Assembly (NCBI GenBank): GCA_040902515.1
Contig: JBBDXB010000006.1
Coordinates: forward strand, 130,219-194,218
DNA length: 64,000 bases
Source of the DNA: Patescibacteria group bacterium
GTDB lineage: Bacteria; Patescibacteriota; SICC01
Direction: 5' to 3'
Positions 22,386-48,469 of this stretch are shown here, piece by piece. Position numbers and translations under genes: made by a program. Below the pieces are notes generated by a model. That model did not search any database, was not told where the DNA came from, and worked only from the letters and a program-made list of their open reading frames with translations. Every line of letters begins with the position of its first letter. Positions within the stretch are counted from its first letter, which is position 1.

Positions 22386-22446
22386 CAGGTTGATTGACCG
22401 GGTTGTGAACGAACGAAGCCGACGTAATAGCAACCCGGCCAATCAA
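22386..22446 (-). promoter_or_regulatory. promoter with inverted-repeat operator-like arms (copy A of conserved module)
   Basis: Arms GTTGATTGACCGGGTTG and CAACCCGGCCAATCAAC (16/17 complementary) bracket a TATTAC -10. CGTTCACAACCCGG lies 12 nt downstream of the -10 on the minus strand. Confidence 0.45.
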
Positions 22447-22507
22447 CCGAAGGGTGGTGCGGGAGATGCATGGCGGTCTCGATGGAATCGAAACATGGTG
22501 CCACGCA
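22430..22507. repeat. 78-nt direct repeat copy 2
   Basis: Near-identical to 21777-21854. It lies upstream of gene 21872-22279, whereas copy 1 lies downstream. Confidence 0.8.
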
Positions 22508-22539
22508 GAGCTCCCGACTTTATACCGCTACAACCACCT

Positions 22540-23205
22540 TCAACTAACGAGTGCCGGAGGATCTCCGACCAGCTCAACGCGCAAAGCTTGAACTATGTTG
22601 CGCGTACTACGATCGAGCTGACTCTTGATATCGACCAACCTGTCGATCGTTCGAGATGAATCTGAGGCGCGTGGCTCCCGCAACATCTCGCGTAGCGCCT
22701 TGTGAGCTGACGGATGTCTTGAAGCAAAGGCGCAGCCAGCCAGTGCATCCGCGAGCATTTCGGGGTTCAGTCGCCGAAGCTGGTTCGTCTTTGCTCGAAC
22801 CAAGCCGACACGGAGAACTGGGATGTCCAGGTCCTCCCGGGTGATGCTGCCACCACGGTAGGTCAGACGTACGGCTCGGTAGAGCGGATGATTGGGAATC
22901 AGCCGCTGGTACCCCGTCCAGGCATAGCGGGCGAGCATTACCTCGTCCCACCTCCCCGCTTGGGCCAGGCGGCGGACACATGCCAGCTCCCAGACGCGAG
23001 AGCGGGTGAGTGACCGCTCCAATGAGCTCAGGCGATACGCGCCTATCAGCGCACCCGTCTTGAAGCCGACCGCCTGCTCCGTCTGACAGACGGTGGCAAT
23101 CGACTCCAACAGCTTCTGCACATCCAACACCTTCCGCTCAAGGCGCAGACGGCGCCAGAGCCTGAAGCGCTGGGGTAGGTCCTGAATCCACCACAAGAGG
23201 TACAT
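22540..23205 (-). CDS. hypothetical protein
   Basis: RBS AAAGGAGAGG before ATG (MYLLWWIQDL...). 222 aa. No recognisable domain. Preceded by conserved module copy B. Confidence 0.5.
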   Translation of the reverse strand: MYLLWWIQDLPQRFRLWRRLRLERKVLDVQKLLESIATVCQTEQAVGFKTGALIGAYRLSSLERSLTRSRVWELACVRRLAQAGRWDEVMLARYAWTGYQRLIPNHPLYRAVRLTYRGGSITREDLDIPVLRVGLVRAKTNQLRRLNPEMLADALAGCAFASRHPSAHKALREMLREPRASDSSRTIDRLVDIKSQLDRSTRNIVQALRVELVGDPPALVS

Positions 23206-23261
23206 TACCTCTCCTTTCGAATGGACGCGAAACGCGTCGTTGACTACACACCCGGTTGTAA

Positions 23262-23330
23262 CGGGTTGATTGACCGGGTTGTAAACGAACGAAGCCGTGA
23301 ATAATACCACGGCTATGCAGTTTATTACAA
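23262..23330 (-). promoter_or_regulatory. conserved promoter/operator module copy B
   Basis: Minus strand: -35 TTGTAA (23325-23330), 18-nt spacer, -10 TATTAT (23301-23306), then CGTTTACAACCCGG (23274-23287), TAGTCAA and cgaaaggag RBS. Immediately 3' of tRNA-Gly(TCC). Confidence 0.5.
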
Positions 23331-23343
23331 TCTTTCACTACTG

Positions 23344-23415
23344 AGCGGGTGGGGGGAATCGAACCCCCATTACCAGCTTGGAAGGCTGGTGTAATAGCCG
23401 TTATACGACACCCGC
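23344..23415 (-). tRNA. tRNA-Gly (TCC)
   Basis: Acceptor GCGGGTG/CACCCGC, anticodon loop CTTCCAA, T-arm GGGGGTTCGATTCCCCC, discriminator U. Confidence 0.75.
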
Positions 23416-23432
23416 ACGAATCCCATTCTAAC

Positions 23433-24533
23433 TCACCGGCCCTCGACCGTGCGCTCGCGCTCGTCCGGCCGGGTGTGCGCGGTCAGCTCGTTGTACCGGC
23501 GGACCTTCGCGTTAGCTTCGGCGACCAGGGCGTTGTACGGGTCCACCAGCGCGTTGTACCCCGTGATGTCCCCGGCCGCGAGCAGCGCGTCCGCCTGCGC
23601 TCCCAGCCGCTCCAGCTCAGACTTGAGCCGATCGATCTCCGCCTTGAGGTCCCGGAGCACCCGCTCGTAGGCCAGATGCTGCTTCACGATCACGCCGCGG
23701 TCCTGCAGGAACGTGGCGTAGTGCCGTTCCAGCTCGGGACTGAGGTCCCGGACTTCCGTACCGAGGATCGCGTGCAGCTCATCGGTCCGGTCATCACCTG
23801 AGTGCGAACCGACCCGGTCCGCCAGCTCCCGGTTGCCACGGACCGCCGCCTCGATCAGCGGCGTCAGACGGTCCTGCTCGGAACCGGACAGATGCTGCCA
23901 CACGGCATGGAGCATCTCATGCGCGGCCGTGACCGAGAGCTCCGGTCGGATCTCTTCCTGCGGGAGATCGATCAGGTAGATGTGATCGCCGGTATAGCAG
24001 CCCTGGAGCTGCCCTTCGTCCACCGCCGAGGAGCACTCCCGCTGGATGAACGATTTGGAAACCAATCTCGGTCGGGTCTCGAGGTAGCGGTCCGCGGCGG
24101 GCCGGGTCATCCGCGCGTCCAGGACCTGCCCGACCGCCACGGGATCGGCGCTCTCCGCGCAGCTCCGGGCGGATCCGCCGAACGTGCCCTGGCCGGTGGC
24201 GTAGTACGCGGAGCCGTCCTCGAGGGTCGTGCATACCAGATAATGCGTGCTGGCATCGTCCACCGCATAGACGATCGAGTCGGATTCCGCGGGCGGCGTC
24301 GGCGGTGCAACCAGCTCCGCCAGTCCCCCGGTCGCATCGGCCCGGGTCAGGGAGCCGTCCGTCTTCGGCAGATTCCCATCCCGTCCATCGAACGCTTCCT
24401 TAAGCTGCTCGACCACGGACCGGCGGGCAATGTCCCGCGTCTCGGCAGCCCGTCGTTCGGATTCGATCCAGAGCCAGCTTCCGGCAGCGACCGCGAGCGC
24501 CAGCGCGACCACCGCACCCAATCGAACCAGCAT
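23433..24533 (-). CDS. membrane-anchored putative zinc metalloprotease (HExxH) with coiled-coil tail
   Basis: N-terminal TM anchor, AAHEMLHAV HExxH motif and a C-terminal heptad-like region. Start set at MLVRLGAVV, just after tRNA-Pro. Confidence 0.45.
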   Translation of the reverse strand: MLVRLGAVVALALAVAAGSWLWIESERRAAETRDIARRSVVEQLKEAFDGRDGNLPKTDGSLTRADATGGLAELVAPPTPPAESDSIVYAVDDASTHYLVCTTLEDGSAYYATGQGTFGGSARSCAESADPVAVGQVLDARMTRPAADRYLETRPRLVSKSFIQRECSSAVDEGQLQGCYTGDHIYLIDLPQEEIRPELSVTAAHEMLHAVWQHLSGSEQDRLTPLIEAAVRGNRELADRVGSHSGDDRTDELHAILGTEVRDLSPELERHYATFLQDRGVIVKQHLAYERVLRDLKAEIDRLKSELERLGAQADALLAAGDITGYNALVDPYNALVAEANAKVRRYNELTAHTRPDERERTVEGR

Positions 24534-24554
24534 CGTCCGTGTTTGATGTTCCAT

Positions 24555-24628
24555 TCGGGGCGGTCAGATTCGAACTGACGACCTCCTGCTCCCAAAGCAG
24601 GCGCGCTGCCAGGCTGCGCCACGCCCCG
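24555..24628 (-). tRNA. tRNA-Pro (TGG)
   Basis: Acceptor CGGGGCG/CGCCCCG, anticodon loop TTTGGGA, T-arm GTCAGTTCGAATCTGAC. Confidence 0.75.
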
Positions 24629-24703
24629 TACGACCGTCCCCATTATGTACCGCCCTGACGTTTTGTGGGAATGAATCCGCAAGTTCCGGACATTCCAGAC
24701 AGT

Positions 24704-24736
24704 AAAGCCCCCTCGACACGATGCCGAGAGGGCTAG
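24704..24736 (-). terminator. putative intrinsic terminator downstream of HU gene
   Basis: On the minus strand, hairpin GCCCTCTCG-gcatcgtgt-CGAGGGGGC followed by a short T-run (ttt). Confidence 0.3.
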
Positions 24737-24756
24737 ATTTCGAAATCTACCATCGC

Positions 24757-25035
24757 TTACTTGCGGACGGCTTCCTTAAGGTTCTTGCCGGGAGTGAATT
24801 TCGCCACCGTCGTTTCGGGAATATGGATCCGCTCGCTCGTCGCCTGCGGGTTCACGCCCATGCGGGCCGCCCGGGTGTTCGCGTACCATGCACCGAAACC
24901 GCTGATCGAAACCTTGCCGCGGTTCTGGAGCGTCTTGGTAATCGAATCGGTCATCGCCTCGAGCGCGACCGTCGCGGCCTTCTTGGAGATCTTGGCCCGC
25001 GAAGCCATCGTCTCGATAACGTCCTGCTTGTTCAT
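24757..25035 (-). CDS. hup: HU family DNA-binding protein
   Basis: MNKQDVIETMA...GFGAWYANTRAARMGVNPQT...: HU/IHF fold signature. 93 aa from the MNKQ start. Confidence 0.85.
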   Translation of the reverse strand: MNKQDVIETMASRAKISKKAATVALEAMTDSITKTLQNRGKVSISGFGAWYANTRAARMGVNPQATSERIHIPETTVAKFTPGKNLKEAVRK

Positions 25036-25176
25036 CGTTGCACCTGCCATATGCCTCACCTCCTCTCGGGGGAATATAGTCAACCAAAGCCTTTTGCATT
25101 GGTAACCCTAGTATGCCGCGGGGTAAAAATATGTCAACGGCGGGGGCTGTGGATTCAGGCACGGCCCACGCCTGTG

Positions 25177-25971
25177 TCACGGGCGCGTGGAAAGCCGCGT
25201 GATTGACTTCGATTTGGTCGGACCGTCGGTTTCGACCAGGACGGCGTCGCAGATGTACGGACGTGCCGGTTCGATCCGGGGCGGCTTACTGACCGCTTCC
25301 CCGAGCTCCTTGCGAAGCCATGCTTCAGCCCGCTCGTACTGCATGCCGATCACCGTGTTCAGGCCGCCGCACATGCCGGCGTCGAACTGGATCGCCGTAC
25401 CGCCGGCCAGCACGCGGGCATCCGCCGACGGCACGTGGGTATGCGTCCCGACCAGCGCGCTGGCTTTGCCGTCGATCCGGTAGGCGACCACCATGAATTC
25501 GCTCGTGGTCTCGGCGTGGAAGTCGATGAAGATGGCGTCGGCCTGGGCGGCCTCGTCGGTCCCGAGCAGCGCGTCGACCGCCCGGAAGTAATCGTCCGTC
25601 TTGCCGTGGAGCTTCGAGATGAACGCGTGCCCGGCGATGTTCGCCAGAAGCAGCTGCCGGCCGCCCACCGGAATGAGCCGGTATCCGGGAACCGGATGGT
25701 CTCCCCTGATGTTCATCGGCCGGACGATGGGGTGCCGGGCGAGGTCGGCGGATTCCCGGTCAAGGAAATGGTCGCCGGTAGTGAAGGCGTCGATGCCGAT
25801 TTCCCGCAGGCGGTCCAGGTCCTCGGGAGTCGCCAGTTTGCCGCCGTGGACGTTTTCCACGTTCGCCAGCACGACGTCGGGCCGGTGCGCTTTCCGCCAT
25901 TCCGGCAGCGTTTCCTGCACGGCCGTGATTCCCGCCTCGCCCTGGAGGTCGCCGAAGAAGAGGATCCGCAC
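25177..25971 (-). CDS. ymdB: TIGR00282-family metallophosphoesterase (YmdB-like)
   Basis: MRILFFGDL...GDHF...HAETTSE...GTHTHV metallophosphoesterase motifs. Conserved rny-ymdB gene pair. Confidence 0.8.
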   Translation of the reverse strand: MRILFFGDLQGEAGITAVQETLPEWRKAHRPDVVLANVENVHGGKLATPEDLDRLREIGIDAFTTGDHFLDRESADLARHPIVRPMNIRGDHPVPGYRLIPVGGRQLLLANIAGHAFISKLHGKTDDYFRAVDALLGTDEAAQADAIFIDFHAETTSEFMVVAYRIDGKASALVGTHTHVPSADARVLAGGTAIQFDAGMCGGLNTVIGMQYERAEAWLRKELGEAVSKPPRIEPARPYICDAVLVETDGPTKSKSITRLSTRP

Positions 25972-25974
25972 GGG

Positions 25975-27495
25975 TTACTTCGCCAGTTCCGTCGCCCGCG
26001 TCTCGCGGATCACGTTGACCTTGATCTGGCCCGGGAAGGTCAGTTCCTGCTCGATCTTCTTGGCGATGTCCTTGGCGAGCTTCACCGTCGAAAGGTCGTC
26101 GATCTCCTGCGGCCGCACCAGGATCCTGATCTCGCGACCCGCCTGGATCGCGTACGCCTTGTCCACGCCGTCGAACGCATTGGCCACGTTCTCCAGCTCC
26201 TGGAGGCGCTTCACGTACTGCTCGTAGCTCTCGCGGCGGGCGCCGGGGCGGGCGCCGGAGATCGCGTCGGAGACCTGGCAGATGACGTCGAGCGTGGATT
26301 CGATCGGCAGGTCCTCGTGGTGCGCGCCGACGGCGTGGCAGATGTCCTCGGGCAGGCCGTACTTCTTGCAGATGTCCCGGCCGATCAGGGCGTGCGGTCC
26401 CTCGACCTCGTGGGTCACGGCCTTGCCGATGTCGTGGAACAAGCCGACCAGCTTGGCCTTGGTCGGATCCACGCCGAGTTCGCCGGCCAGCATCTGCGCG
26501 ATGAAACTGACCTCGACCGAGTGCTTGAGAATGTTCTGCCCATATGACGTCCGGAACTTCATGGTGCCGAGCAGCTTCACCAGATCGGGATTGAGTCCGC
26601 TGAGCTTGAGTTCATAGACGGCATCCTCACCGGCCTTCTTGGAGATCTGGTTCACTTCCTTCTCGGCCTTCTTCACGACCTCTTCGATCCGGGACGGGTT
26701 GATCCGCCCGTCGGCGACGAGCTTCTCCATCGCGATCCGGGCGACCTGCCGCCGGACCGGGCTGTAGCCGGAGATCACCACGGTGTCCGGCGTGTCATCG
26801 ACGATGATGTCGACGCCGGTCGCCTTCTCGAACGACTGGATGTTCCGGCCCTCCTTGCCGATGATCCGCCCCTTGATCTCGTCACTCGGGATCTGGACGG
26901 TCGTCACGGTCAGCTCAGCCGACTGGTCCGCGGCGTAGCGCTGGATCGCCCCGGCGATGATCTTCTTCGCGCGCTGCTCGCCCTCCTCCTTCGCCCGCTC
27001 CTCCAGATCGTGGACCTTCCGTGCGAACTCCTCGGAGAACTCCTTCTCCAGCATCTTGAGCAGCACGTCCTTGGCCTTCGCCTGGGTGAGCTTCGCGACC
27101 TTTTCCAGGTTCTGGACCTGACGCTCCTTCACCTCGGAGATCTCATCCTTAAGCGCCTTGGCTTGTTCACGGTCTTTCTCAAGTTGCGCCAACCGCTCCT
27201 CGAGCTGCTTCTCCTTGCGATCGAGATTTTCCTCACGTGAAGCCAGTCGCGACTCGGTCGCCTCCAGCCGCTTCCGATGCTCGCGTTCCTCGTCTTTCGC
27301 CGCGTTGGTAGCCTTAAGCGCCTCGTCCTGTGCCCTTAGGACGATTTCCTTGGCCTTCGACTCGGCATCACTGAGCGTTTTCTCAGCCTTGGCGTGCGTG
27401 CGCTCCTGCTGGCCCTTGTTGCGATTCGAAAAAACCGCATAACCGAAGCCAGCTCCCGCTGCCGCGGCCACGAGCAGTAACAGTACCGTATCCAT
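25975..27495 (-). CDS. rny: ribonuclease Y
   Basis: N-terminal TM, long coiled-coil, KH domain (IIGKEGRNIQ) and HD domain (LFHDIGK). Confidence 0.9.
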   Translation of the reverse strand: MDTVLLLLVAAAAGAGFGYAVFSNRNKGQQERTHAKAEKTLSDAESKAKEIVLRAQDEALKATNAAKDEEREHRKRLEATESRLASREENLDRKEKQLEERLAQLEKDREQAKALKDEISEVKERQVQNLEKVAKLTQAKAKDVLLKMLEKEFSEEFARKVHDLEERAKEEGEQRAKKIIAGAIQRYAADQSAELTVTTVQIPSDEIKGRIIGKEGRNIQSFEKATGVDIIVDDTPDTVVISGYSPVRRQVARIAMEKLVADGRINPSRIEEVVKKAEKEVNQISKKAGEDAVYELKLSGLNPDLVKLLGTMKFRTSYGQNILKHSVEVSFIAQMLAGELGVDPTKAKLVGLFHDIGKAVTHEVEGPHALIGRDICKKYGLPEDICHAVGAHHEDLPIESTLDVICQVSDAISGARPGARRESYEQYVKRLQELENVANAFDGVDKAYAIQAGREIRILVRPQEIDDLSTVKLAKDIAKKIEQELTFPGQIKVNVIRETRATELAK

Positions 27496-27572
27496 GGAAT
27501 GTTCCCTTTATCATTGCCCTCCTACTATACCACCTCGACCGGGAGCCGCCCGGCACGCTAGGCTGGATACAT

Positions 27573-29540
27573 ATGTTAGGAATCGCATTCCTGCTTACGG
27601 CCGCGACATTCGGATTTTCCGTGGCATACGTGCTGCCGTTGGCGCTTCGGATCGAGGAACGGTTGTTCGCCGGCATACCGATCGGCCTCGCGGCCGGCGG
27701 ACTGATCGGGTTCCTTTACGTACTGTGGTTCGGCATGGACGCCGGCGCGCTGCTCGTGCCGACGCTGCTCGGCGTGGCCGGGACCGGCCTGCTCTGGCGC
27801 CGCCAGGGCCTTGCGGCGGCCGTCCGGCGGGACGTCGCGGACTTCCGGAAACGTCTCCGCGCCTGGCCGTTCCGGATCGGCGCCGCCTTGTTCACGATCC
27901 TCGCGGCGACGCTCGGTACGATCATGTGGCATGCGCTGTTCGTCGACGGCGGTTCGATCTACGTCAGCTTCAGCAACGTCTGGGGGGACTGGAATCAGCA
28001 CCTCGCCCAGACCACCAGCTTCGCGTACGGCGGGAACTTCCCCCCGGAGCAGACCGTGCTGAGCGGCCAGAAGATCACGTACCCGCTGCTCACGAATTTC
28101 GTGTCGGCGCTCCTGGTCACCGGCGGGCTGGGCCTCCTCGCCGCGATGAAAGTTCCCGGCGTGCTGCTGATCATCGCCGGGTTCGGCATGCTCACCACGT
28201 TCCTCCGCCTGACCGCCGGCCCCAAGGCGATGCTGACCGGGGCGGTCCTGTTCTACGCGTTCGGCGGCCTTGGGTTCATCAATTTTTTCGCCGACCTGGC
28301 GGCGTCCGGCAAACCCCTCGGCGAGTTCCTCCGGCAACTCCCGCACGAGTACACGCTTACCTTCGGTGAGGTGCCGGTAGCGAACATCAACCTGATCAAT
28401 CCGATCTTCGCGTACGTCATTCCCCAGCGCGCGTTCCTATTCGGGCTGCCACTCACGCTGACGATCCTGAGCCTCCTATACGCAGGCCTCAAGGGACGGC
28501 CCCGGGAACCGTTCCTGGCTGCCGGGCTGATCGCGATCCTGCTGCCGTTGGTCCACACCCATTCGCTCGTGTTCCTGGGACTACTCACGCCGGGACTGGC
28601 GCTGCTCACCTGGCGACAATTGGCCGGTCCGCGCAAACGGCGCTTCAGATGGCGGTACCTTATGCCCTGGCTGTACTTCGTCGGCCCGATCCTGGCGCTG
28701 GCCGTGCCGCAGGTGCTCTGGCTCTCCGCGGGGGTCAAGGCGACCGGCTTCCTCCGGCCGCAGTTCGGCTGGACCGCGCACGGCGACTTCCTACCCTGGT
28801 TCTGGCTGAAGAACCTCGGACTCTTCCTGCCACTCCTGCTCACGAGCTTCTTCTGGCTCCGCGGGCGCGATTCGCTCCTGCTCCGGTTCACGCTCGCGGC
28901 CGGCATCGTCTGGGTGCTGGCAAACCTGCTCGTGTTCCAGCCGTGGGACTGGGACAACACCAAGTTCCTGGTCTACTGGCTGGTCCTGAGCATCCCGGCC
29001 GTCGCCGCGCTACTGGTCTGGGTATTCGAGCGCGGGCGGATCGGCAAAGTCACGGTCGTCGCGATCTTCCCCTTCCTGATCCTGGCGGGCCTCGCGGACA
29101 TCACCCGGACGCTGCCGCCGAACCACTACCGCACGCTGATGTTCGACGAACAGGCCCAGCGGATCGCGGAGACCGTACGGCGGGAGACCGCGCCCGATTC
29201 GGTCTGGCTGACCGGACAGCAGGTGAACAATCCGGTCGCGTCACTCGCCGGAAGACGGCTGGTGCTGGGCTACACGGGCTGGCTTTGGAGCTATGGGCTG
29301 GACTACGCCCACCGCGAAGCCGACGTGCGGCGGATGTATGAAGGCGCACCGGAAACCCCGGAGCTGCTCCGGCAGTACGAAATCGACTTCGTGATGATCG
29401 GCCCCTCGGAGCGGGCGGACGAGGGATACGCCGTCAATGAGAGGTTCTTCCGCGAGCGGTATCCGGTCTGGCAACGGTTCCCCGCGGAGCCGGGGGAGAC
29501 GGACGGCCCGGTGAACGTCTACCGGATTTCGGAGGAGTAA
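27573..29540 (+). CDS. putative polytopic membrane glycosyltransferase (GT-C/ArnT-PMT-like)
   Basis: 655 aa with 12 or more TM helices and a C-terminal soluble domain. GT-C-like topology. Function is inferred. Confidence 0.45.
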   Translation: MLGIAFLLTAATFGFSVAYVLPLALRIEERLFAGIPIGLAAGGLIGFLYVLWFGMDAGALLVPTLLGVAGTGLLWRRQGLAAAVRRDVADFRKRLRAWPFRIGAALFTILAATLGTIMWHALFVDGGSIYVSFSNVWGDWNQHLAQTTSFAYGGNFPPEQTVLSGQKITYPLLTNFVSALLVTGGLGLLAAMKVPGVLLIIAGFGMLTTFLRLTAGPKAMLTGAVLFYAFGGLGFINFFADLAASGKPLGEFLRQLPHEYTLTFGEVPVANINLINPIFAYVIPQRAFLFGLPLTLTILSLLYAGLKGRPREPFLAAGLIAILLPLVHTHSLVFLGLLTPGLALLTWRQLAGPRKRRFRWRYLMPWLYFVGPILALAVPQVLWLSAGVKATGFLRPQFGWTAHGDFLPWFWLKNLGLFLPLLLTSFFWLRGRDSLLLRFTLAAGIVWVLANLLVFQPWDWDNTKFLVYWLVLSIPAVAALLVWVFERGRIGKVTVVAIFPFLILAGLADITRTLPPNHYRTLMFDEQAQRIAETVRRETAPDSVWLTGQQVNNPVASLAGRRLVLGYTGWLWSYGLDYAHREADVRRMYEGAPETPELLRQYEIDFVMIGPSERADEGYAVNERFFRERYPVWQRFPAEPGETDGPVNVYRISEE

Positions 29541-31093: not shown

Positions 31094-31262
31094 AAGGCGA
31101 TGAACCCGTTTCCCAGTGCCCCCCTCCCTCCGGCAACCTAATGGTCGCTCGCTTGTTACTATAGCTGGCTGCTTGCACCATTGTCAATCCCGCACGGATG
31201 CGGTATGTTCAGGAGCCGATAAAACCCTGCCATACCGCTCTTTTTGCGGTACACTACGTACT

Positions 31263-31565: not shown

Positions 31566-31590
31566 AAAAGCGGGCGCATGCCTGCGCCGG
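31564..31590 (-). terminator. intrinsic terminator after rplY/ctc
   Basis: Minus strand: GGCGCAGGCATGCGCC hairpin followed by CGCTTTTTTATT. Confidence 0.55.
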
Positions 31591-31611
31591 AACCATCGGA
31601 GCGAAATCCCG

Positions 31612-32352: not shown

Positions 32353-32393
32353 ACGAAATCCAGCTTAGCTGACCGCTAAGCTTGTTGCCAGCC

Positions 32394-33741: not shown

Positions 33742-33742
33742 G

Positions 33743-39416: not shown

Positions 39417-42284
39417 TTGACAGCCAGTCATTTTTTTGCTAAGATAAGGCAATTTTTCGGGTTCCCGATAATCCCCCAAAAATACGCAGCCGGAACAGCA
39501 ACACAGAACAACGTGCTCGGACGATTCCCATTCAGGTCGACGCTCATCCGCCTCGCGGCGGTGGTCACGCTGGCATTGGTTCCCCTCGGGACCGCGGCAC
39601 CGGCCGAAGCGGCGGACGGGTACCAGTTTCCCTGCAGCCCATACAAGCTATCGGGGTATAACTTCGGACAGCACGTGTCCGGCTGGGGGTATCACGCCGG
39701 CCAGGACATCGCCTGCTCTTCCGGGACCCCCGTCTACGCGATCGCCGACGGGAAAGTGGTCTACTCCGCGCTGACCCCTGACTCCTGGCGCTGGGGAAAC
39801 CTGATCATGATCGAGCACGCCAACCCGAACGGTTCCAAGGCCACCAGCATCTACGGGCACCTCAGCAACAACCGCCGGGTCGCAGCCGGCCAGCGCGTCA
39901 GCAAGGGGCAGCATATCGGCGCGATCGGGCCGAGCAATACCCGGGAGAACGGACGTTGGGGGGACCACCTCCATTTCGCCGTCCACCTCGGGGCCTACGG
40001 AGCCTCGACCGGTACGTACTGGTCGGCCATCCACGGATACGAGCCGGCCAGCAAGATCGGCCGGTACGCGCACCCCGGGAAGTACATCACTTCGCGGCAG
40101 AACTATTACAGTTACCAGTACGTCGGCCAGAACGGCGGCGGTTCCAAGGCCAGGACGGAAGAACATTACGTCGAGTTCCGACTCAAGAACACCGGACAGG
40201 CCACCTGGCGGTCCAGCGGTTCGAACGCGGTCCGGCTCGGGACCGAGCGGCCGCGTGACCGCGGCAGCACGTTCTCCCGCGGCATGGGCGGACATGGCTG
40301 GCACGCTCCGAACCGGATTTCCCTGCAGTCCGACACGCCCCCGGGACAAGTCGGGGTCTTCCGGGCTCGCTTCAACAACAGCTACGTCTCGCCCGGAAAC
40401 CACCGCGAGTACTTCACCCCGGTCGTGGAGGGGATCAGCTGGATGCGGAACATCGGCATGTACACCGGTATCCGCGTGCAGGGATACAACTACCGGGCCC
40501 AGTGGTACGGGCAGAGCGCCCACTTGGAGCTATCGCCGACCTCCCGACAGACCACTAACCATCACCGCTATCTCGCGGCGGGCAAGAAAGTGAATCTCAA
40601 GGCGTACATCAAGAACACCGGCGATTACTCCTGGCATGCCGGAGGCAAGCACCCGGTCCGGCTCGGCACGAGCCGCTCGATCGATCGGAAGAGCCGCTTC
40701 GCGACGACTAAGCGCGACGGCGTTCCCGACGGCGAGCAGTGGATTAGCGGCAGTCGGGCGACCGGACTGAACGGCCGCCTGGACCCGTCCACCAACAAGG
40801 TCGTGGGAGACAGTACGATCGAACCCGGCCAAATCGGCGTGTTCTCGTTCACGATCAAGGCACCCGGCACGCCGGGGACCTACCGGGAATACTTCCGGCC
40901 GGTCCTCGAGGGCAACCGCTGGCTGGATGACTTCGGCATGTACTTCGAGCTCCGGGTACTGCCGCATGGATTCCACTACGAGTGGGTCAAGCAGGAGAAC
41001 CCCGAACCGGTGGCCTATGAGCACGGGGACGCCACCACGCGGGTCTACCTCCGGAACACCGGCCAGGCGGCCTGGCCCACCGGGGGTAACGTGCGGCTGG
41101 GAACCGACCGGAGCCGGGACCGCAAGTCGGCCTTCAAGGGCGGCGACTGGCTGGCGGCCAACCGGGCCAGCACGATCGATGAGGTCGCCGACGCGCCGGG
41201 TGAACGGGTCGTGGATCCGGGACAGGTCGCCCGTTTCGATTTCAAGGTGGAAAGTAAGGTCAAACCGGACGGCGGGTACAAGGAATACTTCCGGCCGGTG
41301 GCGGAAGGCAAGGCCTGGTTCCCCGAGGACTACGGCATGTACGTGCCGGTGCACGTCGAATCACCGCCATACGGCTACTCCGTGCTTGACCAGCGGTTCT
41401 CCAAGGATCCGTCCGACGCCAAGTACGGCGAGGTCATCGAGGCGGTGCTACAGGTCAAGAACCTGGGCAGCAACCCCTGGCCGGCGGACGGGACCAACGC
41501 CGTCCGGCTGGGAACGTTCCGCCCGCAGGATCGGCAGTCCGGCTTCGGCACGGTCGGTGGAAGCGCGGGCTGGATCAACGCAAGCCGGGCCGCCCGGATC
41601 AGCGGCAAGGTCGACACGGACGGTACGGTACAATCGGCCAGCGAGATCAACCAGGGCGAAGTGGCCCAGTTCAAGGTACCGCTCCGGATCGATTCCGCAC
41701 TCGATCCCGGCAGCTATAAGGAGTACTTCAACCTCGTCCACGAAGGCAAGGCCTGGATGCCGGACCTTGGCATCTACTTCCCGGTAACGATCACGTCCGC
41801 GAACTATGACTATGAGGTACTGGACAAGCGGTACTCACGGGACCCCCGGCAATTGTCGGAAGACGACGAAGTCGAGGTGCGGGTGGCCGTCCGGAACACC
41901 GGCCGCTACGCCTGGCCGGTCAGTGGCAGCAACGCGGTCCGGCTCGGGACCGAGCGACCGCGGGACCGCAGTTCCGCATTCCGGACGACCACCGGTAGCG
42001 ACCCTTGGCTGGCGGCCAACCGGGCCAGCGGTATCGACGGCAAGGTGACCGACCTGGCCACCCTGGCGACCGTACCCGCCACCGGGATCAAGCCCGGTGA
42101 GGTCGCCCTGCTGAAGTTCACCCTGACCGCGAACAAACTCGGCAGCCATCAGGAGTACTTCTCGCTCGTCCAGGAGGGCGTGACCTGGTTCCCGGACCAT
42201 GGATTGATGATTTCCCTGAACATCACCGCACCGGCCGGTATCAACGATCCCGACGCGTCACCCTCACCGAGCCCGGCACCGTAA
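39417..42284 (+). CDS. secreted M23 peptidase with 5 tandem NBR1-like Ig (beta-sandwich) repeats
   Basis: Signal peptide. M23 domain (GYHAGQDIA...GTPVYAIADG...DHLHFAVH). Five roughly 115-aa repeats, each with NTG..W / VRLGT.RP.DR.S.F / PG.....F.....G.Y.EYF.PV.EG..W. Confidence 0.8.
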   Translation: MTASHFFAKIRQFFGFPIIPQKYAAGTATQNNVLGRFPFRSTLIRLAAVVTLALVPLGTAAPAEAADGYQFPCSPYKLSGYNFGQHVSGWGYHAGQDIACSSGTPVYAIADGKVVYSALTPDSWRWGNLIMIEHANPNGSKATSIYGHLSNNRRVAAGQRVSKGQHIGAIGPSNTRENGRWGDHLHFAVHLGAYGASTGTYWSAIHGYEPASKIGRYAHPGKYITSRQNYYSYQYVGQNGGGSKARTEEHYVEFRLKNTGQATWRSSGSNAVRLGTERPRDRGSTFSRGMGGHGWHAPNRISLQSDTPPGQVGVFRARFNNSYVSPGNHREYFTPVVEGISWMRNIGMYTGIRVQGYNYRAQWYGQSAHLELSPTSRQTTNHHRYLAAGKKVNLKAYIKNTGDYSWHAGGKHPVRLGTSRSIDRKSRFATTKRDGVPDGEQWISGSRATGLNGRLDPSTNKVVGDSTIEPGQIGVFSFTIKAPGTPGTYREYFRPVLEGNRWLDDFGMYFELRVLPHGFHYEWVKQENPEPVAYEHGDATTRVYLRNTGQAAWPTGGNVRLGTDRSRDRKSAFKGGDWLAANRASTIDEVADAPGERVVDPGQVARFDFKVESKVKPDGGYKEYFRPVAEGKAWFPEDYGMYVPVHVESPPYGYSVLDQRFSKDPSDAKYGEVIEAVLQVKNLGSNPWPADGTNAVRLGTFRPQDRQSGFGTVGGSAGWINASRAARISGKVDTDGTVQSASEINQGEVAQFKVPLRIDSALDPGSYKEYFNLVHEGKAWMPDLGIYFPVTITSANYDYEVLDKRYSRDPRQLSEDDEVEVRVAVRNTGRYAWPVSGSNAVRLGTERPRDRSSAFRTTTGSDPWLAANRASGIDGKVTDLATLATVPATGIKPGEVALLKFTLTANKLGSHQEYFSLVQEGVTWFPDHGLMISLNITAPAGINDPDASPSPSPAP

Positions 42285-42393
42285 ACCAATACTCGCCTTT
42301 TTGCACCGAACGGGCCTATTTGGTACTAACAAGTAGGAGCTAGTTATCCGAAACAAAATCATACAATGCGGAATCATCCTGGGAGCCGGCATC

Positions 42394-44637
42394 GTGCTCG
42401 GCTTGTTCGGCGCGGGCAGCGGTGAGGCGAAAGCGGCGGCGACCAGTTACCAGGTCCCCTGTTTTCCCTACAATAAGCCGAATTACGCCTTCCGGCAGTA
42501 TGTTTCGGGATGGGGATACCACGTGGCCGAGGATTCCTGCCACCAGGCGGGGCTTGCCGTCTTCGCGGCGGGTAACGGCGTCGTGAAGTATTCCGCCCGT
42601 ACGCCGGACTCCTACCGCTGGGGCAACCTGATCGTCATCGAGCACACGACGACGTCCGGTGGCAAGATACTCAGCCTGTACGGCCATCTCGGGAACGATC
42701 GCAAGGTGAAGGCGGGACAAACCGTGTTCAAGGGCCAACGGATCGGTACGGTGGGCCCGAGCGGAAGCCAGAACGGCTACTGGAGCCCGCATATACATTT
42801 CGGCATCCGGATCGCCCGGTACGGCGCGGCGACCGGGTCGTATGACCACTCGATCCACGGTTATGAGTATCCCTGCTGCGCCGCCTGGACGGGACCGTCG
42901 GCGTTCGTGAATGCCCGGCGTGCCTCGTACGATTACGTGCCGCACCGGATCGCCGGGACGCGGGAGATGTGGTTCAACAGCGACACCGAACTGACGTTCC
43001 AGGTATGGAACACCGGCGGACAGACATGGCGTACCGGCGGTGATACCCCGCTCCGGCTCGGAACCATCAGGACCCACGATCGAACCAGCGTCTTTGCCGA
43101 CGGAGGCGCTGCCGACGGGTGGGCCGGCGTGAACCGGATCGAACTGGTGAACGATACGGGACCGGACCAACTGGCGACGTTCCGCGCCACGTTCGAATCA
43201 CCGGGAGCGTCCGGACGTTGGACCGAGTGCTTCGCGCCGGTCGCGGAAGGCGTAGCGTGGCTCAAGGATCGCGGGTTCTGCACCGGAGTCACCGTCCATC
43301 CGCCGACGTGGCGGGGTGAGTACGTCGGCCAACGCATCACGGCCTCCTCGGACCCGGCCGACATGACGGCAACTACCGCCGATCACCTGAAGCCGGGCGA
43401 CACCCGGAGTCTCAAGCTGTTCATCAGGAACACCGGCGAGCTTGCCTGGGTCCAGGGCGGCAGTAACCCGACCCGTCTGGCCACCGCGAACCCGCGTGAC
43501 CGAGCCAGCGCGTTCCGGACGTCCGGCCTGACCGGCAGCGGCGCTTCCGAGAACTGGGTCAGCGGCAGCCGGGCCTCGGAGCTCGAGGGGCGGTACGATC
43601 CGGATACCGATTCCATCGTGCCGGATACCGAGATCACCACCGGCGAGGTCGGCGCGTTCTCGTTCACGGTGACGGCACCTGACCTGCCGGGCTACCACAA
43701 GGAGTACTTCAACCCGGTCGTCGAAGGAAAGCTGCACATGCCGTACCTCGGCATCTGGTTCGGATTGAACGTGCTCGACCGCGGATACCACTATGGGTAT
43801 GAGTCGCAGTCGCAGTCGCCGACCACCGTCGGAAGCGGCGTGAGCGAACAGGAGACCGTGCTCCGACTCAGGAACACCGGCCGGGAGTCCTGGCCGGTGG
43901 ACGGCGACCTCCGGATCGGCACCGCCCGGCCGCGGGACCATCGGTCGACGTTCTACTCATCCTCAGGCAGCGAACCCTGGATCGCCCGCTCCCGACCCTC
44001 CACCCTGGATGCGAACGTGACGGATTCCGGCAAGACGACGGTGGATCCTGGTGAGGTCGGTGAGTTCCGGTTCACGATCAACGTGCCGGAAGACCTCCCC
44101 GTCGGCACCTACAAGCTCTATGTCCGGCCGGTCCTGGACGGCGTGGCCTGGCTGCCGGAAGATTACGGGATCTACTTCCCGGTCAAAGTCACCGCGCCGC
44201 CGATCAGCTACCGGTACGAGAAGCAGGACGTCTCCGGTGACGCGGGCGCTTTCCAGCGCGGCACCACGATGACGGCCCGGTTGGCCGTGACCAACACCGG
44301 ACGCCGGAGTTGGGACGTCGACGGTCAGAACGCGGTCCGGCTGGGAACCAGCCGTCCGCAGGACCGCAGTTCCGCATTCCGGACGACCGCCGGCAGCGAC
44401 CCCTGGATCGCCGCCAATCGTGCCAGCGCGATCGACGGCCGGGTCACCGACCTGGCCACCTTGGCGACGACCCCGGATACCTCGATCGAGCCGGGCGAGA
44501 CGGCGCTCTTCTCCTTCCCGCTCACCGCGAACCCGGCACCGGGAAACTACAAGGAATACTTCAACCTGGTGATGGAGCGGGTCACTTGGATGCGCGACAT
44601 CGGCATCTACTTCCCGTTGACCGTCGTCGCACCGTAA
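42394..44637 (+). CDS. secreted M23 peptidase with 4 tandem NBR1-like Ig repeats (paralog of upstream gene)
   Basis: Same architecture as 39417-42284. M23 motifs: GYHVAEDSC, GNGVVKYS, PHIHFGIR. The last repeat is nearly identical at DNA level to the last repeat of the upstream paralog. Confidence 0.8.
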   Translation: MLGLFGAGSGEAKAAATSYQVPCFPYNKPNYAFRQYVSGWGYHVAEDSCHQAGLAVFAAGNGVVKYSARTPDSYRWGNLIVIEHTTTSGGKILSLYGHLGNDRKVKAGQTVFKGQRIGTVGPSGSQNGYWSPHIHFGIRIARYGAATGSYDHSIHGYEYPCCAAWTGPSAFVNARRASYDYVPHRIAGTREMWFNSDTELTFQVWNTGGQTWRTGGDTPLRLGTIRTHDRTSVFADGGAADGWAGVNRIELVNDTGPDQLATFRATFESPGASGRWTECFAPVAEGVAWLKDRGFCTGVTVHPPTWRGEYVGQRITASSDPADMTATTADHLKPGDTRSLKLFIRNTGELAWVQGGSNPTRLATANPRDRASAFRTSGLTGSGASENWVSGSRASELEGRYDPDTDSIVPDTEITTGEVGAFSFTVTAPDLPGYHKEYFNPVVEGKLHMPYLGIWFGLNVLDRGYHYGYESQSQSPTTVGSGVSEQETVLRLRNTGRESWPVDGDLRIGTARPRDHRSTFYSSSGSEPWIARSRPSTLDANVTDSGKTTVDPGEVGEFRFTINVPEDLPVGTYKLYVRPVLDGVAWLPEDYGIYFPVKVTAPPISYRYEKQDVSGDAGAFQRGTTMTARLAVTNTGRRSWDVDGQNAVRLGTSRPQDRSSAFRTTAGSDPWIAANRASAIDGRVTDLATLATTPDTSIEPGETALFSFPLTANPAPGNYKEYFNLVMERVTWMRDIGIYFPLTVVAP

Positions 44638-44646
44638 CGCAGCCGG

Positions 44647-46440
44647 CTAACCCTTGGCCCGCCCGGTGATCGGCCGGAGTGCCTGGCTGGACTTCGGCGT
44701 CACCCGGAAGTCGAGCGAACGGCCGAAGATCAGCCGTGTCTGGCTCTCGATCGCCGGCAGGCTGGAGAACAGGATCGTCGTCAGGGGCATCAGGACCCAC
44801 TGCGCGATGTGCAGAAGCCGGTGATGCTCCCGGTAGCCCGGCGGTTTCGGCGGCAGGAGCAGGATCGAGATGAAGATCGTCACGATGATACCGACCAGCG
44901 CCAGGGTGAGGATGGCACTGGCGGTCGGCGCCAGCGTCTGGCCGAACAGCGTCTCCCGGAAGCTCGGCGAGAGCAGGATCGGCAACCAGCCGACGAAAGT
45001 AATCAGGATCGGCGCCGTGGCCCATGTCACGTGGCCCTCGAGGAACCGTGCCAGGTGGAGCGTCTTCTCCCGCCAGGGGATCCGGCGGTCTCGGATGGCG
45101 CTGATCACGGCGTACGGGAAATCGGAAGCGCCCCATGCCCACCGGCGGAGCTGCACGTACTGCCCCTTCAACGTCGAGGCGTAGGTGTCATCGAGCACCG
45201 CGTCCTGGTAGACCGGGACGTAGAGCGGCTGCACGAAGTGGTTTCCGTCATGCCGGAAGTAGGTCCGCCAGTACTGTTGGCCGTCCTCGACGATCGTGTC
45301 GACCGACCAGAAGTCGGTGTCGACCACCGTCTGCAATCCCTGCGCGTGAGCCGCGAAGTTCCGGAGCCGGTAGGGGCGGGTCGACTCGATCATGTGCCAG
45401 AACGAGGAACCGGTAGCGATCACGCGGTTGATCGCCGTCGTGTACCAGAGGTTGTTATGGAAGAGCGGCGTCGGCTGGAACGTACGGTACCGCCGCTCGG
45501 GCGTCAGCAGGTACTGGTAGGTCAGGGCCGCGAAGTAGCGCGGATGCGGGCGATGGTCCGCGTCGAGCGTCGTCACGATGACTTCCTCGTGCGGGATCTT
45601 CAGCTTGTCGATCTCCCGTATCGCCTTGCGGCCGGCCCAGGCGAGGTTCGACCCCTTGCCCTTCACCTCGCCGGTGATGTTGGAGGGATGTTCGCTGACG
45701 ATCAGGCGCTTGAAGCATCCCTTGAACTCGCGTCTGATCGCCCGGGCATTCGCCCGTGCCCGCGCCTTGTCGCGTTCCTCCGTCGCCAGTACGACGATCA
45801 TCCGGTCCGGTTCGTACGACGCGTCGGCGATCGCCTGGAAGCTCGGACGGAGGGTGTCGAGATCCTCGGTGTACGTCGCGACGATCACCAGGTGATGGAT
45901 CCGCGATGCCCGCGGTATCGGCTCCGGCGAAGCGATCGCCGTCTCGACCTGGGCCAGCTCCTCCCGCAGTTCCCGGTAGTCCTGGGCCAAGCGGCGGTTG
46001 GTCAGGCCGAGCTGCCGCTGCCAGAACCACCGGTCAAGCCCTTCCCGTCCGCCGTCGATCCGACGGATCACCCGCCGAAGCGTGGCCGCGTAGGTATCGA
46101 TGCTACGCTCGAGCGCCCGGATCCGACTGTGCCAGTCCACGCGGGTATCGCGACGGAGCCGGCGGTATGCCCGGATCAGGTTGGTCGAGAGGATCACCGA
46201 CCGCACCAGCCAGTAGACGTCGAAGAGCAGGATCGCGTACGCGACGACCGGCGGCGCCAGGAACGACAAGACCACCGCGCCGATGAAGATCGACCAGGTG
46301 ACCAGACCCGGCACCATCTCCAGCGCCCGCCAGACGTCGGGCGGTACGGTACGGCGGGTCGCCGACGAGGAAATCCGCGTGTCGGTGAACGCGGGCTGGT
46401 CGACGTAGCGGGCGATCTGGCGCTGGGTCAGCACGCCCAT
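44647..46440 (-). CDS. processive family-2 membrane glycosyltransferase (cellulose/chitin-synthase-like)
   Basis: TLDADH (D,D,D) and QLRRWAWG (QxxRW) motifs. N- and C-terminal TM bundles. Confidence 0.75.
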   Translation of the reverse strand: MGVLTQRQIARYVDQPAFTDTRISSSATRRTVPPDVWRALEMVPGLVTWSIFIGAVVLSFLAPPVVAYAILLFDVYWLVRSVILSTNLIRAYRRLRRDTRVDWHSRIRALERSIDTYAATLRRVIRRIDGGREGLDRWFWQRQLGLTNRRLAQDYRELREELAQVETAIASPEPIPRASRIHHLVIVATYTEDLDTLRPSFQAIADASYEPDRMIVVLATEERDKARARANARAIRREFKGCFKRLIVSEHPSNITGEVKGKGSNLAWAGRKAIREIDKLKIPHEEVIVTTLDADHRPHPRYFAALTYQYLLTPERRYRTFQPTPLFHNNLWYTTAINRVIATGSSFWHMIESTRPYRLRNFAAHAQGLQTVVDTDFWSVDTIVEDGQQYWRTYFRHDGNHFVQPLYVPVYQDAVLDDTYASTLKGQYVQLRRWAWGASDFPYAVISAIRDRRIPWREKTLHLARFLEGHVTWATAPILITFVGWLPILLSPSFRETLFGQTLAPTASAILTLALVGIIVTIFISILLLPPKPPGYREHHRLLHIAQWVLMPLTTILFSSLPAIESQTRLIFGRSLDFRVTPKSSQALRPITGRAKG

Positions 46441-46485
46441 CAGTATACCGCGTCAGCGGATCGGAAGCGCGGTACCGGGTTTTGC

Positions 46486-48033
46486 TCAACGGCGGCCGCT
46501 GTAGTTGGGGGCTTCGCGAGTGATCGTCATATCATGGGGATGGCTTTCCGCTTGGGCAGCAGGTGACACCCGCTGGAACTTACCACGTCGCTGCAGCACG
46601 GGTACCGATTCTGATCCCGTATAGTACATGCTCTTCTCAATTCCACCAACGTACTGAGCCACAACCTCCGCCAGGGTTCCGCTGTAGGGCACTACCCCCT
46701 CAATGCCTTCCGGGACCACGGCCTTCCGTTCGCCCGAATAGTATCGGCCACCGCCCCTGCTTTCCCGAATACCACCTTCCGATCCCATGCCGCGGTACGC
46801 CTTAAACTTCCGACCCTCCTGAAGGACCGTCTCTCCAGGACTTTCTTCAACCCCCGCGAAGATACTTCCCATCATCACTGCATCGGCGCCGGCGACCAGC
46901 GCCTTGCCTGCATCACCCGAGTAACGAATGCCGCCATCGGCAATAACCGGTATCTCACCACGTGTTTCTTGTAATGCCAATTTGATTGCAGCAAGTTGCG
47001 AAGTGCCGACACCGGTGACTTTCCGAGTAGTGCAACTTGCTCCCGGACCAATCCCGATTTTGATCGCATCAGCGCCGGCCTCGACTAACTCCCGGGTCGC
47101 CGAACGGCTACCGACGTTACCAGCGACTAGCTGTAAATCCGGAAAAGCGTGTTTGATTTCGCGGGTCAAAGCGATGACCGCCGCGTCCCCGCCATGGGCG
47201 GAGTCGGCGGTAAAGAAGTCCGCCCCCACCTTGATCAGCCGGTCGACTCGGGTCAGTGCATCCTCGAGATTCGCCTCCACGCCAATTGCCGCACCGACCA
47301 CCAGGCGGCCCTTGGCGTCCTTGGCTGCATGCGGGAACTTGGTTCGTAAGACGATGTCTTTGAACGTGAAGAGACCCTTGAGCCGCCCCTCTGCATCGAC
47401 AACAGGTAAATGGTCCACCTCCTCGTCCTTGTGCTCACGCAAATAGCGTTCTGCATCATCTCTGGTAGATCCCTCCGGAAGGACAGCGAGCCGATCCAGT
47501 GGCTTCATGACATCACGTAGCGACTCAGAGCCAGATGTGAAGCGAAGTTGACGCTTCGCGACCAAGCCCACGAGACGGTTCTCATCGATCACCAGCACGC
47601 TTCCGATGCCGCGTTCTTCCCGGATTCTCCGTACTTCACTGACTGGCGCATCGGGTGGAAGGGTGACCGGGTGCTCAATCAACGCGGACTCGGTTCGTTT
47701 CACCCGTTCGACCTGGTCGACCTGGTCTTCGATCGAGAGGTTCTTATGGATGACTCCCGCACCGCCCTCGCGTGCCAAGGCAGTTGCCAACCGATGCTCG
47801 GTGACCGTATCCATGGCCGCCGAGAGAAACGGGATGTTCAGTTCAATCCCGCGGGTAAGCCTGGTCTGAAGCGACAACGCTTGGTGTCGGACGTCGGAAA
47901 GTTCCTGACGGATGGTGACATCGTCGTACGTCAGGCCTTCACGAACGATATCCGAGTCACTGACGACTTCGACATCCTCAGGAATAACCTCAAATTCCGG
48001 TGCCCCCTCAAAGCCCCGTTCTCCTCTATCCAT
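46486..48033 (-). CDS. guaB: IMP dehydrogenase
   Basis: GLTYDDV..., paired CBS domains, catalytic GIGPGASCTTR loop, GGIRYSGD, MMGSIFAG. Confidence 0.9.
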   Translation of the reverse strand: MDRGERGFEGAPEFEVIPEDVEVVSDSDIVREGLTYDDVTIRQELSDVRHQALSLQTRLTRGIELNIPFLSAAMDTVTEHRLATALAREGGAGVIHKNLSIEDQVDQVERVKRTESALIEHPVTLPPDAPVSEVRRIREERGIGSVLVIDENRLVGLVAKRQLRFTSGSESLRDVMKPLDRLAVLPEGSTRDDAERYLREHKDEEVDHLPVVDAEGRLKGLFTFKDIVLRTKFPHAAKDAKGRLVVGAAIGVEANLEDALTRVDRLIKVGADFFTADSAHGGDAAVIALTREIKHAFPDLQLVAGNVGSRSATRELVEAGADAIKIGIGPGASCTTRKVTGVGTSQLAAIKLALQETRGEIPVIADGGIRYSGDAGKALVAGADAVMMGSIFAGVEESPGETVLQEGRKFKAYRGMGSEGGIRESRGGGRYYSGERKAVVPEGIEGVVPYSGTLAEVVAQYVGGIEKSMYYTGSESVPVLQRRGKFQRVSPAAQAESHPHDMTITREAPNYSGRR

Positions 48034-48139
48034 ATATACACGCTACCGAGCGGGCAACGTTTCGGCAACCTGGCCGGTCATTCGGGGGCCGGGAGCGGTA
48101 CTTGCTGTGATAGCAGATACCGTGATCCCGGCCCGGCCG

Positions 48140-48370
48140 TCATGTGTGAACACCCACTCTCTTGAGCCACCTGTACAGGCACAGCAGACCAAGCAGCACC
48201 CCCAGACTGGGCATGAGCAGGGACCACGCCGTGATGGGGTAACCCTCCGTGATCTGGAAGATGATCAGGGCGACTGAAGCGAGCGGCACGAGATAGGCGA
48301 AGAGGAAGCGGTCGAACGGCTTCTCGAGCTGCTTGACCACGCCCTCTGCGAACTTGTCGATGAAGCGCAT
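48140..48370 (-). CDS. small hypothetical membrane protein
   Basis: 76 aa with two TM helices. RBS AAAGGA. Preceded by conserved promoter module copy C. Confidence 0.5.
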   Translation of the reverse strand: MRFIDKFAEGVVKQLEKPFDRFLFAYLVPLASVALIIFQITEGYPITAWSLLMPSLGVLLGLLCLYRWLKRVGVHT

Positions 48371-48415
48371 GATGTTTCCTTTCGACGGTTTTTGACTACA
48401 TGACGGAATGACCGG

Positions 48416-48469
48416 CCGGGTTGTAAACGAGCAGATTAAGATAATACTACGGTTGACTTACTTTTTCAA
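48416..48469 (-). promoter_or_regulatory. conserved promoter/operator module copy C
   Basis: Minus strand: -35 TTGAAA (48464-48469), 17-nt spacer, -10 TATTAT (48441-48446), 11 nt, CGTTTACAACCCGG (48416-48429), then TAGTCAA and cgaaagga RBS. Confidence 0.55.

Follow-up and report, generated by a model that had tools for sequence, protein, structure and literature searches.

Why do three unrelated genes of one bacterial chromosome, none of them with a protein-family match, begin with the same short sequence just past a -10-like hexamer? The question is raised by a 64,000-nucleotide (nt) stretch from a Patescibacteria group bacterium, called the window below, in which three minus-strand open reading frames (ORFs), here A, B and C, share this arrangement. 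A preliminary description had read it as a promoter and leader module, with the shared sequence being either a repressor operator or the start of a structured leader RNA. We find that the shared sequence is one side of a considerably larger element. Comparison of the units with one another and with related genomes shows a conserved, covarying arrangement, predicted to be a three-way junction, which joins the leader to the region past the stop codon and encloses the leader, the Shine-Dalgarno (SD) sequence and the ORF or ORFs between them.

Paired repeats around orphan genes

The observations that raised the question hold up well. The 14-mer CGTTYACAACCCGG is present in exactly three copies, at 22398-22411, 23274-23287 and 48416-48429 (all minus strand), each upstream of the ORF to which it had been assigned, and when up to two mismatches are allowed there are 4 matches in the window against 0.99 expected. 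A TATTAT or TATTAC hexamer stands 5' of every copy, with gaps of 12 (A), 13 (B) and 11 nt (C). The pattern TATTAT-N(8-16)-CGTTYACAAC was found twice in the window against 0.00 expected, copy A having TATTAC instead. B and C also have TGTAGTCAA and CGAAAGGA in common, and A and B share cggcttcgttcgtt. As a control, all 109 unrelated matches of the 15-mer TCGTTYACAACCCGG in viral and reference genomes are single-copy and none (0/109) has TATTAY at the right distance; likewise, the 72 matches of a viral scan and the 5 of a metagenome scan with a 19-mer are chance only. The module is non-random, then, and lies at a predicted transcript start before unrelated ORFs. Searches of ORFs A, B and C against Pfam, PADLOC, PHROGs and NCBIfam gave no match, and protein homologue searches with A and with C returned the query alone. 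An exhaustive HMMER search among 1.84 billion proteins brought the A family to six representatives. For ORF B, a single-sequence AlphaFold2 model is all-helical at low confidence and unusable, with a mean predicted local distance difference test score of 44.8.

What changes the picture is the 18-mer CAACCCGGYCAATCAACC, which has four matches in the window where 0.08 would be expected: the leaders of A and B each hold a copy on the minus strand, and two more are on the plus strand just 3' of A and B, so that each gene is bracketed by an inverted repeat. The 14-mer proposed as an operator is in fact the 5' half of this 18-bp repeat, or arm1, whose 18-nt arms are 94% complementary around A, B and C; it represents one strand of a predicted helix with its partner 0.3-0.9 kb downstream. 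The features of the three units are listed here, a prime marking the 3' partner of an arm.

23301-23330, minus strand: promoter-like site of unit B, TTGTAA-18-TATTAT, its -10 in the loop of a hairpin (23293-23314) that is followed by the U-rich tail TCGTTCGTTT
23264-23287, minus strand: 14-mer of unit B overlapping the 5' arm1 CAACCCGGTCAATCAACC (23264-23281, pairing with 22431-22448)
23255-23263, minus strand: 5' arm2 of unit B, CGTTACAAC, its partner GTTGTAGCG lying just past the stop codon
22540-23205, minus strand: ORF B, 221 amino acids (aa), no family match; a 35%-identical (aa) orthologue lies in the same bracket in a distant relative, L127
22431-22534, minus strand: 3' module of unit B, with arm2' (22526-22534), hairpin (22460-22516), linker ACCACCCTTC (22449-22458) and arm1' GGTTGATTGGCCGGGTTG (22431-22448); covariance model (CM) score 108 bits
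22379-22429, minus strand: 5' module of unit A, with TATTAC (22424-22429), the 14-mer, arm1 (22388-22405, pairing with 21779-21796) and arm2 TGTTACGAC (22379-22387)
22280-22378, minus strand: A-type 5' untranslated region (UTR), three hairpins with covariation in five genomes, then the SD sequence AGGAGG
21872-22279, minus strand: ORF A, 135 aa, of a tiny family
21779-21878, minus strand: 3' module of unit A, with arm2' GTCGTAACG (21870-21878, including the stop codon TAA at 21872-21874), hairpin (21808-21862), linker and arm1' (21779-21796); CM score 107.8 bits
48441-48469, minus strand: promoter-like site of unit C, TTGAAA-17-TATTAT
48398-48429, minus strand: 5' module of unit C, with arm1 CAACCCGGCCGGTCATTC (48406-48423, pairing with 48066-48083) and arm2 CGTCATGT (48398-48405); CGTTT at 48425-48429 pairs with AAACG at 48058-48062
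48140-48370, minus strand: ORF C, 76 aa, two hydrophobic segments, an orphan
48058-48145, minus strand: 3' module of unit C, with arm2' ACATGACG (48138-48145, including the stop codon TGA at 48140-48142), a different hairpin (about 48086-48137), arm1' GAATGACCGGCCAGGTTG (48066-48083) and AAACG (48058-48062)

The arrangement is the same each time. Arm1, of 18-24 bp, begins about 10-30 nt past the predicted transcription start and is complementary to the last conserved bases of the unit. Directly 3' of it in the leader follows arm2, of 9-13 bp, which matches the stop-codon segment of the last ORF (GTTACGAC/GTCGTAAC in A, CCGTTACAACC/GGTTGTAGCGG in B and the arm2 and arm2' listed above in C); in all units arm2' overlaps the stop codon or starts 0-17 nt after it. 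Between arm2' and arm1' stands a conserved hairpin, which in A and B belongs to a 78-nt repeat that is 96% identical. In unit C the distal half of arm1 reads CCGGTCATTC in place of TCAATCAACC and its 3' partner is altered to match. Minimum free energy (MFE) folds of whole units place the same helices around the ORF, with z-scores of -6.0 (C), -5.8 (B), -4.9 (A) and -2.7 (for D, a fourth unit described below), and the calculated duplex energies range from -25 to -36 kcal/mol (arm1) and from -14 to -21 kcal/mol (arm2). Where B meets A, a local hairpin is another possible fold of the junction. A gene-by-gene scan for 5'/3' complementarity gave 17 for A and 15 for C, against at most 12 for the next-best genes listed and a median of 8; the bracket is specific to these genes and not a feature of the genome's genes at large. 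An ORF-agnostic helix scan of the window, which is too noisy in GC-rich coding DNA, brought up no further units. The single-stranded linker CGCACCACCYTT between hairpin and arm1' (22449-22461 and 21797-21809, minus strand) is invariant across genomes in all A/B-type units, and it resembles the anti-SD end of 16S rRNA.

The fourth unit came from a CM built on the 3' module and searched against the window and related loci, which found a diverged copy at 60990-61088 (minus strand; 30.6 bits, E = 3e-6). It belongs to unit D (60987-61451, minus strand):

61387-61451, minus strand: 5' module of unit D, with the outer part of arm1 GGGCTATGA (61443-61451), a 32-nt insert, the inner part of arm1 CATGGTTTGCCGATC (61396-61410) and arm2 GATCCTTCATGAT (61387-61399); the 14-mer is absent
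61086-61355, minus strand: ORF D, 89 aa, Cys-rich and zinc-ribbon-like, directly 3' of tRNA-Arg(cct)
60987-61086, minus strand: 3' module of unit D, with arm2' ATCGTGATGGAT (61075-61086, starting within the stop codon), a homologue of the A and B hairpin (61019-61070), the linker GATTTTTT (61011-61018) and arm1' GGTCGGCAGACCATGTCATAGCCC (60987-61010)

The two parts of its arm1 together pair with arm1' over 24 bp, including two sense-strand G-U pairs, and are unrelated to the 14-mer; the MFE fold recovers the same architecture. Since unit D keeps the pairing with unrelated arms, and the bracket of the B orthologue in L127 has GCCTTAACAATCCGG where the 14-mer would be, the 14-mer cannot serve as the defining feature that it had been taken for. 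What defines the element is its architecture, and the window holds four units with three unrelated arm sequences.

Relatives, covariation and promoters

Is this architecture maintained in other genomes? A scan of reference genomes returned 40 loci, 37 of which are chance singletons in unrelated phyla, while the remaining 3 loci (four matches) are true relatives. In L117, a metagenome-assembled genome (MAG) of Saccharibacteria, two tandem units occupy the same tRNA-Gly locus as in the window and both carry A homologues, B thus being replaced there by an A paralogue, A'. L116 has one A-type unit, with an M15 peptidase gene beside A at the tRNA-Gly locus, and in L102 an A-family unit lies between FtsH and MurJ. 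Homologues of a neighbouring gene led to two further loci, L127 and L123, and the A-family HMMER matches to L132 and L133. In L127 the B orthologue, located after tRNA-Gly, has a bracket around it that shows compensatory changes. L123 (5180-5860) and L124 hold a decayed unit around an unrelated 73-aa ORF, reduced to the 3' arm, the linker and what is left of the third A-type leader hairpin; in five relatives that are more distant, the tRNA-Gly locus carries no unit. L132 has a further A-family unit. The bracket of L133 (240-1210) surrounds two ORFs, which encode a 141-aa member of the A family and a Cys-rich protein of 77 aa, and so tracks the transcript rather than the gene. The contents of the tRNA-Gly locus accordingly run from B and A in the window through A' and A (L117), M15 peptidase gene and A (L116) and the decayed unit (L123) to a B-type unit (L127). 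On the related loci the 3'-module CM found the known units and the L123 remnant only. Altogether, ten units from seven or eight genomes have the same architecture, unit D being counted apart. A short-read Logan contig with gene B (SRR27977660; L001) stops within the 3'-module repeat, as is consistent with a multi-copy repeat in that genome.

These ten units (A, B and C of the window, two from L117 and one each from L102, L116, L127, L132 and L133) were aligned over 18 bp of arm1, 9 bp of arm2 and 6 bp at the base of the hairpin. Pairing is possible in 96.9% of the cells. Two-sided changes affect 9 pairs against 2.8 +/- 1.2 in shuffled alignments, none of which (0/500) reached 9, and the covariation score is 0.197 against 0.115 in the shuffles. 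When the 3' side was slid by 1-3 columns, at most two two-sided pairs were left and pairing fell to 20-46%. A version with eight units gave the same picture. The one-sided changes are G-U in the sense strand, and an ancestral U-G of arm1 has been repaired to C-G twice and to U-A once; in L133, arm1 has both an A-U to G-C and a U-G to C-G change. The three hairpins of the A-type 5' UTR covary as well. Across genomes the nucleotide identity of the flanks is 76-93% for the 5' module and 74-93% for the 3' module, whereas the enclosed ORFs are 51-60% identical in nucleotides and 26-46% in amino acids, or have been replaced outright. Within the window, A and B, with unrelated ORFs, have flanks of 91-93% identity.

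The promoter is not part of what is shared. Sigma-70-like promoters were called for C (TTGAAA-17-TATTAT) and B (TTGTAA-18-TATTAT), and across units and genomes the sites vary between TTGAAA/TATTAT, TTGTAA/TATTAT, TTGTAA/TACTAT and TAGACN/TACTAT, so that 'promoter module' is a misnomer; nor is the proposed small regulon of uncharacterised proteins established. A second arrangement became apparent around these sites. In the window (23293-23314, minus strand), in L127 (4545-4575) and in L102 (1590-1612), the -10 of the unit promoter lies in or beside a terminator-like hairpin with the U-rich tail UUCGUUCGUUU after it. Apparently the upstream terminator (of tRNA-Gly or FtsH) overlaps compactly with the unit promoter here, which would account for the presence of cggcttcgttcgtt in both A and B, as that sequence is the 3' half and U-rich tail of the hairpin with the -10 in its loop.

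A probable RNA helix and its alternatives

We consider it probable that each unit is a self-contained transcription unit whose mRNA would be closed by a long-range helix between leader and 3' UTR. That the helix would form in RNA is suggested by the fixed short distance of the arms after the -10, by the unit-specific arm2 pairs, by the extra hairpins on one side only and by the tolerance of sense-strand G-U pairs; the transcript-wide bracket of L133 and the covarying leader hairpins alongside point the same way. Its most likely role would be to define and protect both mRNA ends, the clamp fixing them and keeping 5' and 3' exonucleases away from them, and/or to serve as a double-stranded substrate of RNase III-type processing that would release the unit from read-through or tandem transcripts. 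With arm2' located at the stop codon, each terminating ribosome would have to melt it, and the fate of the mRNA may in this way be coupled to its translation. The conserved flanks would then behave as a portable chassis with an exchangeable ORF.

Several points weigh against this interpretation. Start sites and 3' ends are predictions from the sequence. Unit A has a -10-like hexamer only, with no -35 and no promoter called, and none was called for unit D either, so that A and D may depend on upstream transcription. There is no canonical terminator after arm1' in A or C, and in unit D the U-run GATTTTTT follows the hairpin and precedes arm1', so that the two resemble an intrinsic terminator, at which transcription would stop short of arm1'. 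The single mismatch of unit C is C-A in the sense strand, and the asymmetry of G-U over A-C changes (about 8 events versus 3) is suggestive, not significant. Arm1 and the linker are near-invariant across genomes, beyond the need of pairing alone. The loci examined, a small part of any genome, showed no RNase III gene. Finally, inverted repeats that flank a promoterless gene also fit a DNA-level mechanism.

Such a mechanism, the main rival, would treat the arms as the inverted repeats of a promoterless cassette that is inverted as a phase switch, or exchanged or mobilised by a recombinase, with the promoter outside. We regard this as rather unlikely. The repeats do flank leader, ORF and hairpin and leave the promoter outside, the contents of the tRNA-Gly locus do differ among close relatives, and an A-family unit is found at another locus, between FtsH and MurJ, in L102, L132 and L133; the break of the Logan contig within the repeat and the hairpin and U-run of unit D, which would end the RNA ahead of the 3' arm, also favour it. 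However, all ten units outside unit D have one orientation relative to the promoter in the assembled sequence, no recombinase or transposase is present among the ORFs scanned, and the breakpoints of the exchange between B and A' fall within arm2 and at the hairpin, not at arm1. The arm2/arm2' pair differs in every unit and is always complementary, the hairpin is offset on one side only and the 5' arm of unit D is split by 32 nt; these are features expected of an RNA junction and not of recombinase sites. Wobble changes, moreover, favour the sense strand. A transposon with terminal inverted repeats, such as a MITE (miniature inverted-repeat transposable element), was rejected because there are no target-site duplications, or direct repeats of any kind, at the arm ends and because homology on the 5' side continues beyond the arm into the leader and the U-rich tail. 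Both observations also count against the DNA-level cassette.

The interpretation as a closed mRNA can be taken further, to a portable 'closed-loop mRNA chassis' in which the UTR pair circularises the message and the flanks double as recombination handles for ORF swaps. In the folded RNA the stop codon in arm2' would sit a few tens of nt from the SD sequence, and terminating ribosomes would reopen the clamp and could re-initiate. We think this extension distinctly unlikely; if true, it would be an RNA-level counterpart of the integron cassette system in ultra-small episymbiotic bacteria.

It is also very unlikely that the shared flanks have no function and are leftovers from one ancestral unit that recently underwent duplication or gene conversion. 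The near-identity of A and B, both in their 3' modules (96%) and in their flanks as a whole, and the confinement of a tiny family to one clade would be expected of such a relic, but across genomes the flanks are 74-93% identical around ORFs with the far lower amino-acid identities given above, in C and D the same architecture is built from different sequences, and the compensatory changes that maintain the pairing across genomes make a neutral origin hard to accept.

Least probable of all, and to an extreme degree, is an operator, in which the 14-mer or arm would be bound by a DNA-binding repressor and the downstream copy might allow looping: the fixed position just past the -10 and the strong conservation of arm1 across genomes would suit it, but the site is not a dyad, its CGTTY part is absent in the L127 orthologue, the arms of C and D differ within one genome and are each matched by their own 3' partner, protein bound to duplex DNA cannot explain unit-specific arm2 covariation and G-U substitutions, and complementarity is kept independently of sequence in C, D, L127 and L133, which excludes the reading and leaves the start of a structured leader RNA as the part of the preliminary description closest to the evidence.

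Chromosomal setting and comparison with known systems

The window is part of a bacterial chromosome, as it encodes RNase Y, YmdB, HU, an ATP synthase alpha/beta family subunit, inosine monophosphate dehydrogenase (IMPDH) and a YcaO protein. Its assignment to Patescibacteria/Saccharibacteria follows from NCBI protein names ('Patescibacteria group bacterium') and from the closest syntenic locus, which comes from a Candidatus Saccharibacteria MAG. There are 11 tRNA genes, every one on the minus strand and placed singly or in pairs among protein genes. A phage origin, an idea raised by this number in 64 kb, was rejected on account of the chromosomal genes for RNase Y, YmdB, ATP synthase and IMPDH, and the window has no similarity to phage and plasmid collections. 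Three other segments stand out. At 9439-11892 (plus strand) an 817-aa ResIII/Helicase_C protein is fused to six HNH_repeat repeats, which are associated with homing endonucleases; this segment is low in GC (49% versus about 62%) and was probably acquired horizontally. At 5414-8186 (minus strand) a 606-aa protein with a YcaO cyclodehydratase domain adjoins a 316-aa ORF, and this may be a locus for a ribosomally synthesised and post-translationally modified peptide, or for a thioamide, in a reduced genome. At 39417-44637 (plus strand) two neighbouring giant proteins of 955 and 747 aa consist of diverged repeats of about 430 nt; the counterparts of their genes in L002 have precomputed Peptidase_M23 matches.

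How does the bracket relate to elements already described? With Rfam covariance models only tRNAs reach the gathering score and nothing credible appears up to E = 5; similarly, the idea that the 78-nt repeat is tRNA-like or an att site was dropped for want of Rfam or ARAGORN support. In the literature searched, neither the arm sequences nor UTR structure in Saccharibacteria came up. We class the element as a putative variant of bacterial 5'UTR-3'UTR pairing and not as an attC site, a MITE, a hok-like locus or an operator. Pairing of the two UTRs within one bacterial mRNA has been described for Staphylococcus aureus icaR, Bacillus subtilis hbs (14 bp) and S. aureus RNAIII/hld, where it changes the access of RNase III or RNase Y, or translation (PMC7821165, PMC5737220). 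These pairings concern single genes, are short (7-14 bp) and are not conserved between related species (PMC7821165). As in these cases, complementary segments lie in the leader and 3' UTR of the same gene, with predicted helices of 18-24 and 9-13 bp here; unlike them, the bracket is a conserved module with a hairpin, is common to unrelated ORFs and covaries across genomes. There is also a difference in position: the icaR 3' UTR pairs with the SD sequence, whereas the arms of the bracket end about 20-110 nt upstream of it.

Resemblances to other systems are partial. The leader-trailer stems of rRNA operons are substrates of RNase III. They too are long helices, formed by sequences hundreds of nt apart, that bracket an RNA, and this likeness would suit excision from a precursor; the bracket, itself a predicted helix, differs in surrounding protein-coding ORFs. 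In type I toxin mRNAs of the hok/sok kind, fold-back between the 5' and 3' ends is inhibitory. End-to-end pairing of a small-protein mRNA, predicted here, is a common point, and ORF C is small and hydrophobic, but A (135 aa), B (221 aa) and D (89 aa) are not membrane-toxin-like and have no protein-family match. A type I toxin-antitoxin system was rejected because C alone has the appropriate size and hydrophobicity and no antisense promoter was called opposite its leader. Integron cassettes likewise are small uncharacterised ORFs in a variable array, split by structured inverted-repeat elements. The attC site, however, is a hairpin formed locally, with RYYYAAC...GTTRRRY boxes, and stands at the 3' end of a cassette that has no promoter, whereas here one arm lies on each side of the gene, GGTTGAT...ATCAACC are the outermost bases, the units have promoter-like sites of their own and solo units exist; for these reasons, solo units aside, the candidate was rejected. 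No IntI integrase or attI was noticed among the ORFs scanned, the window not having been searched exhaustively. Phage 'morons' are autonomous promoter-gene-terminator insertions with no 5'/3' bracket. They resemble the present units as compact autonomous units between housekeeping genes at different loci, and differ from them in that the units have no phage context and no match in the phage and plasmid collections.

Long-range pairing of 5' and 3' UTRs in bacteria has so far been a matter of few, single genes. A modular and conserved bracket would differ in that unrelated ORFs use it, covariation supports it and four sequence versions of it coexist within 64 kb. If this is correct, the pairing of mRNA ends can be a reusable expression device, and the bracket would be a defined and clonable system for the effects of end pairing on decay, processing and translation. 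For the Saccharibacteria, which are host-dependent epibionts, the bracket marks fast-evolving orphan proteins that appear to be exchanged as cassettes and that may be relevant to the interaction with the host.

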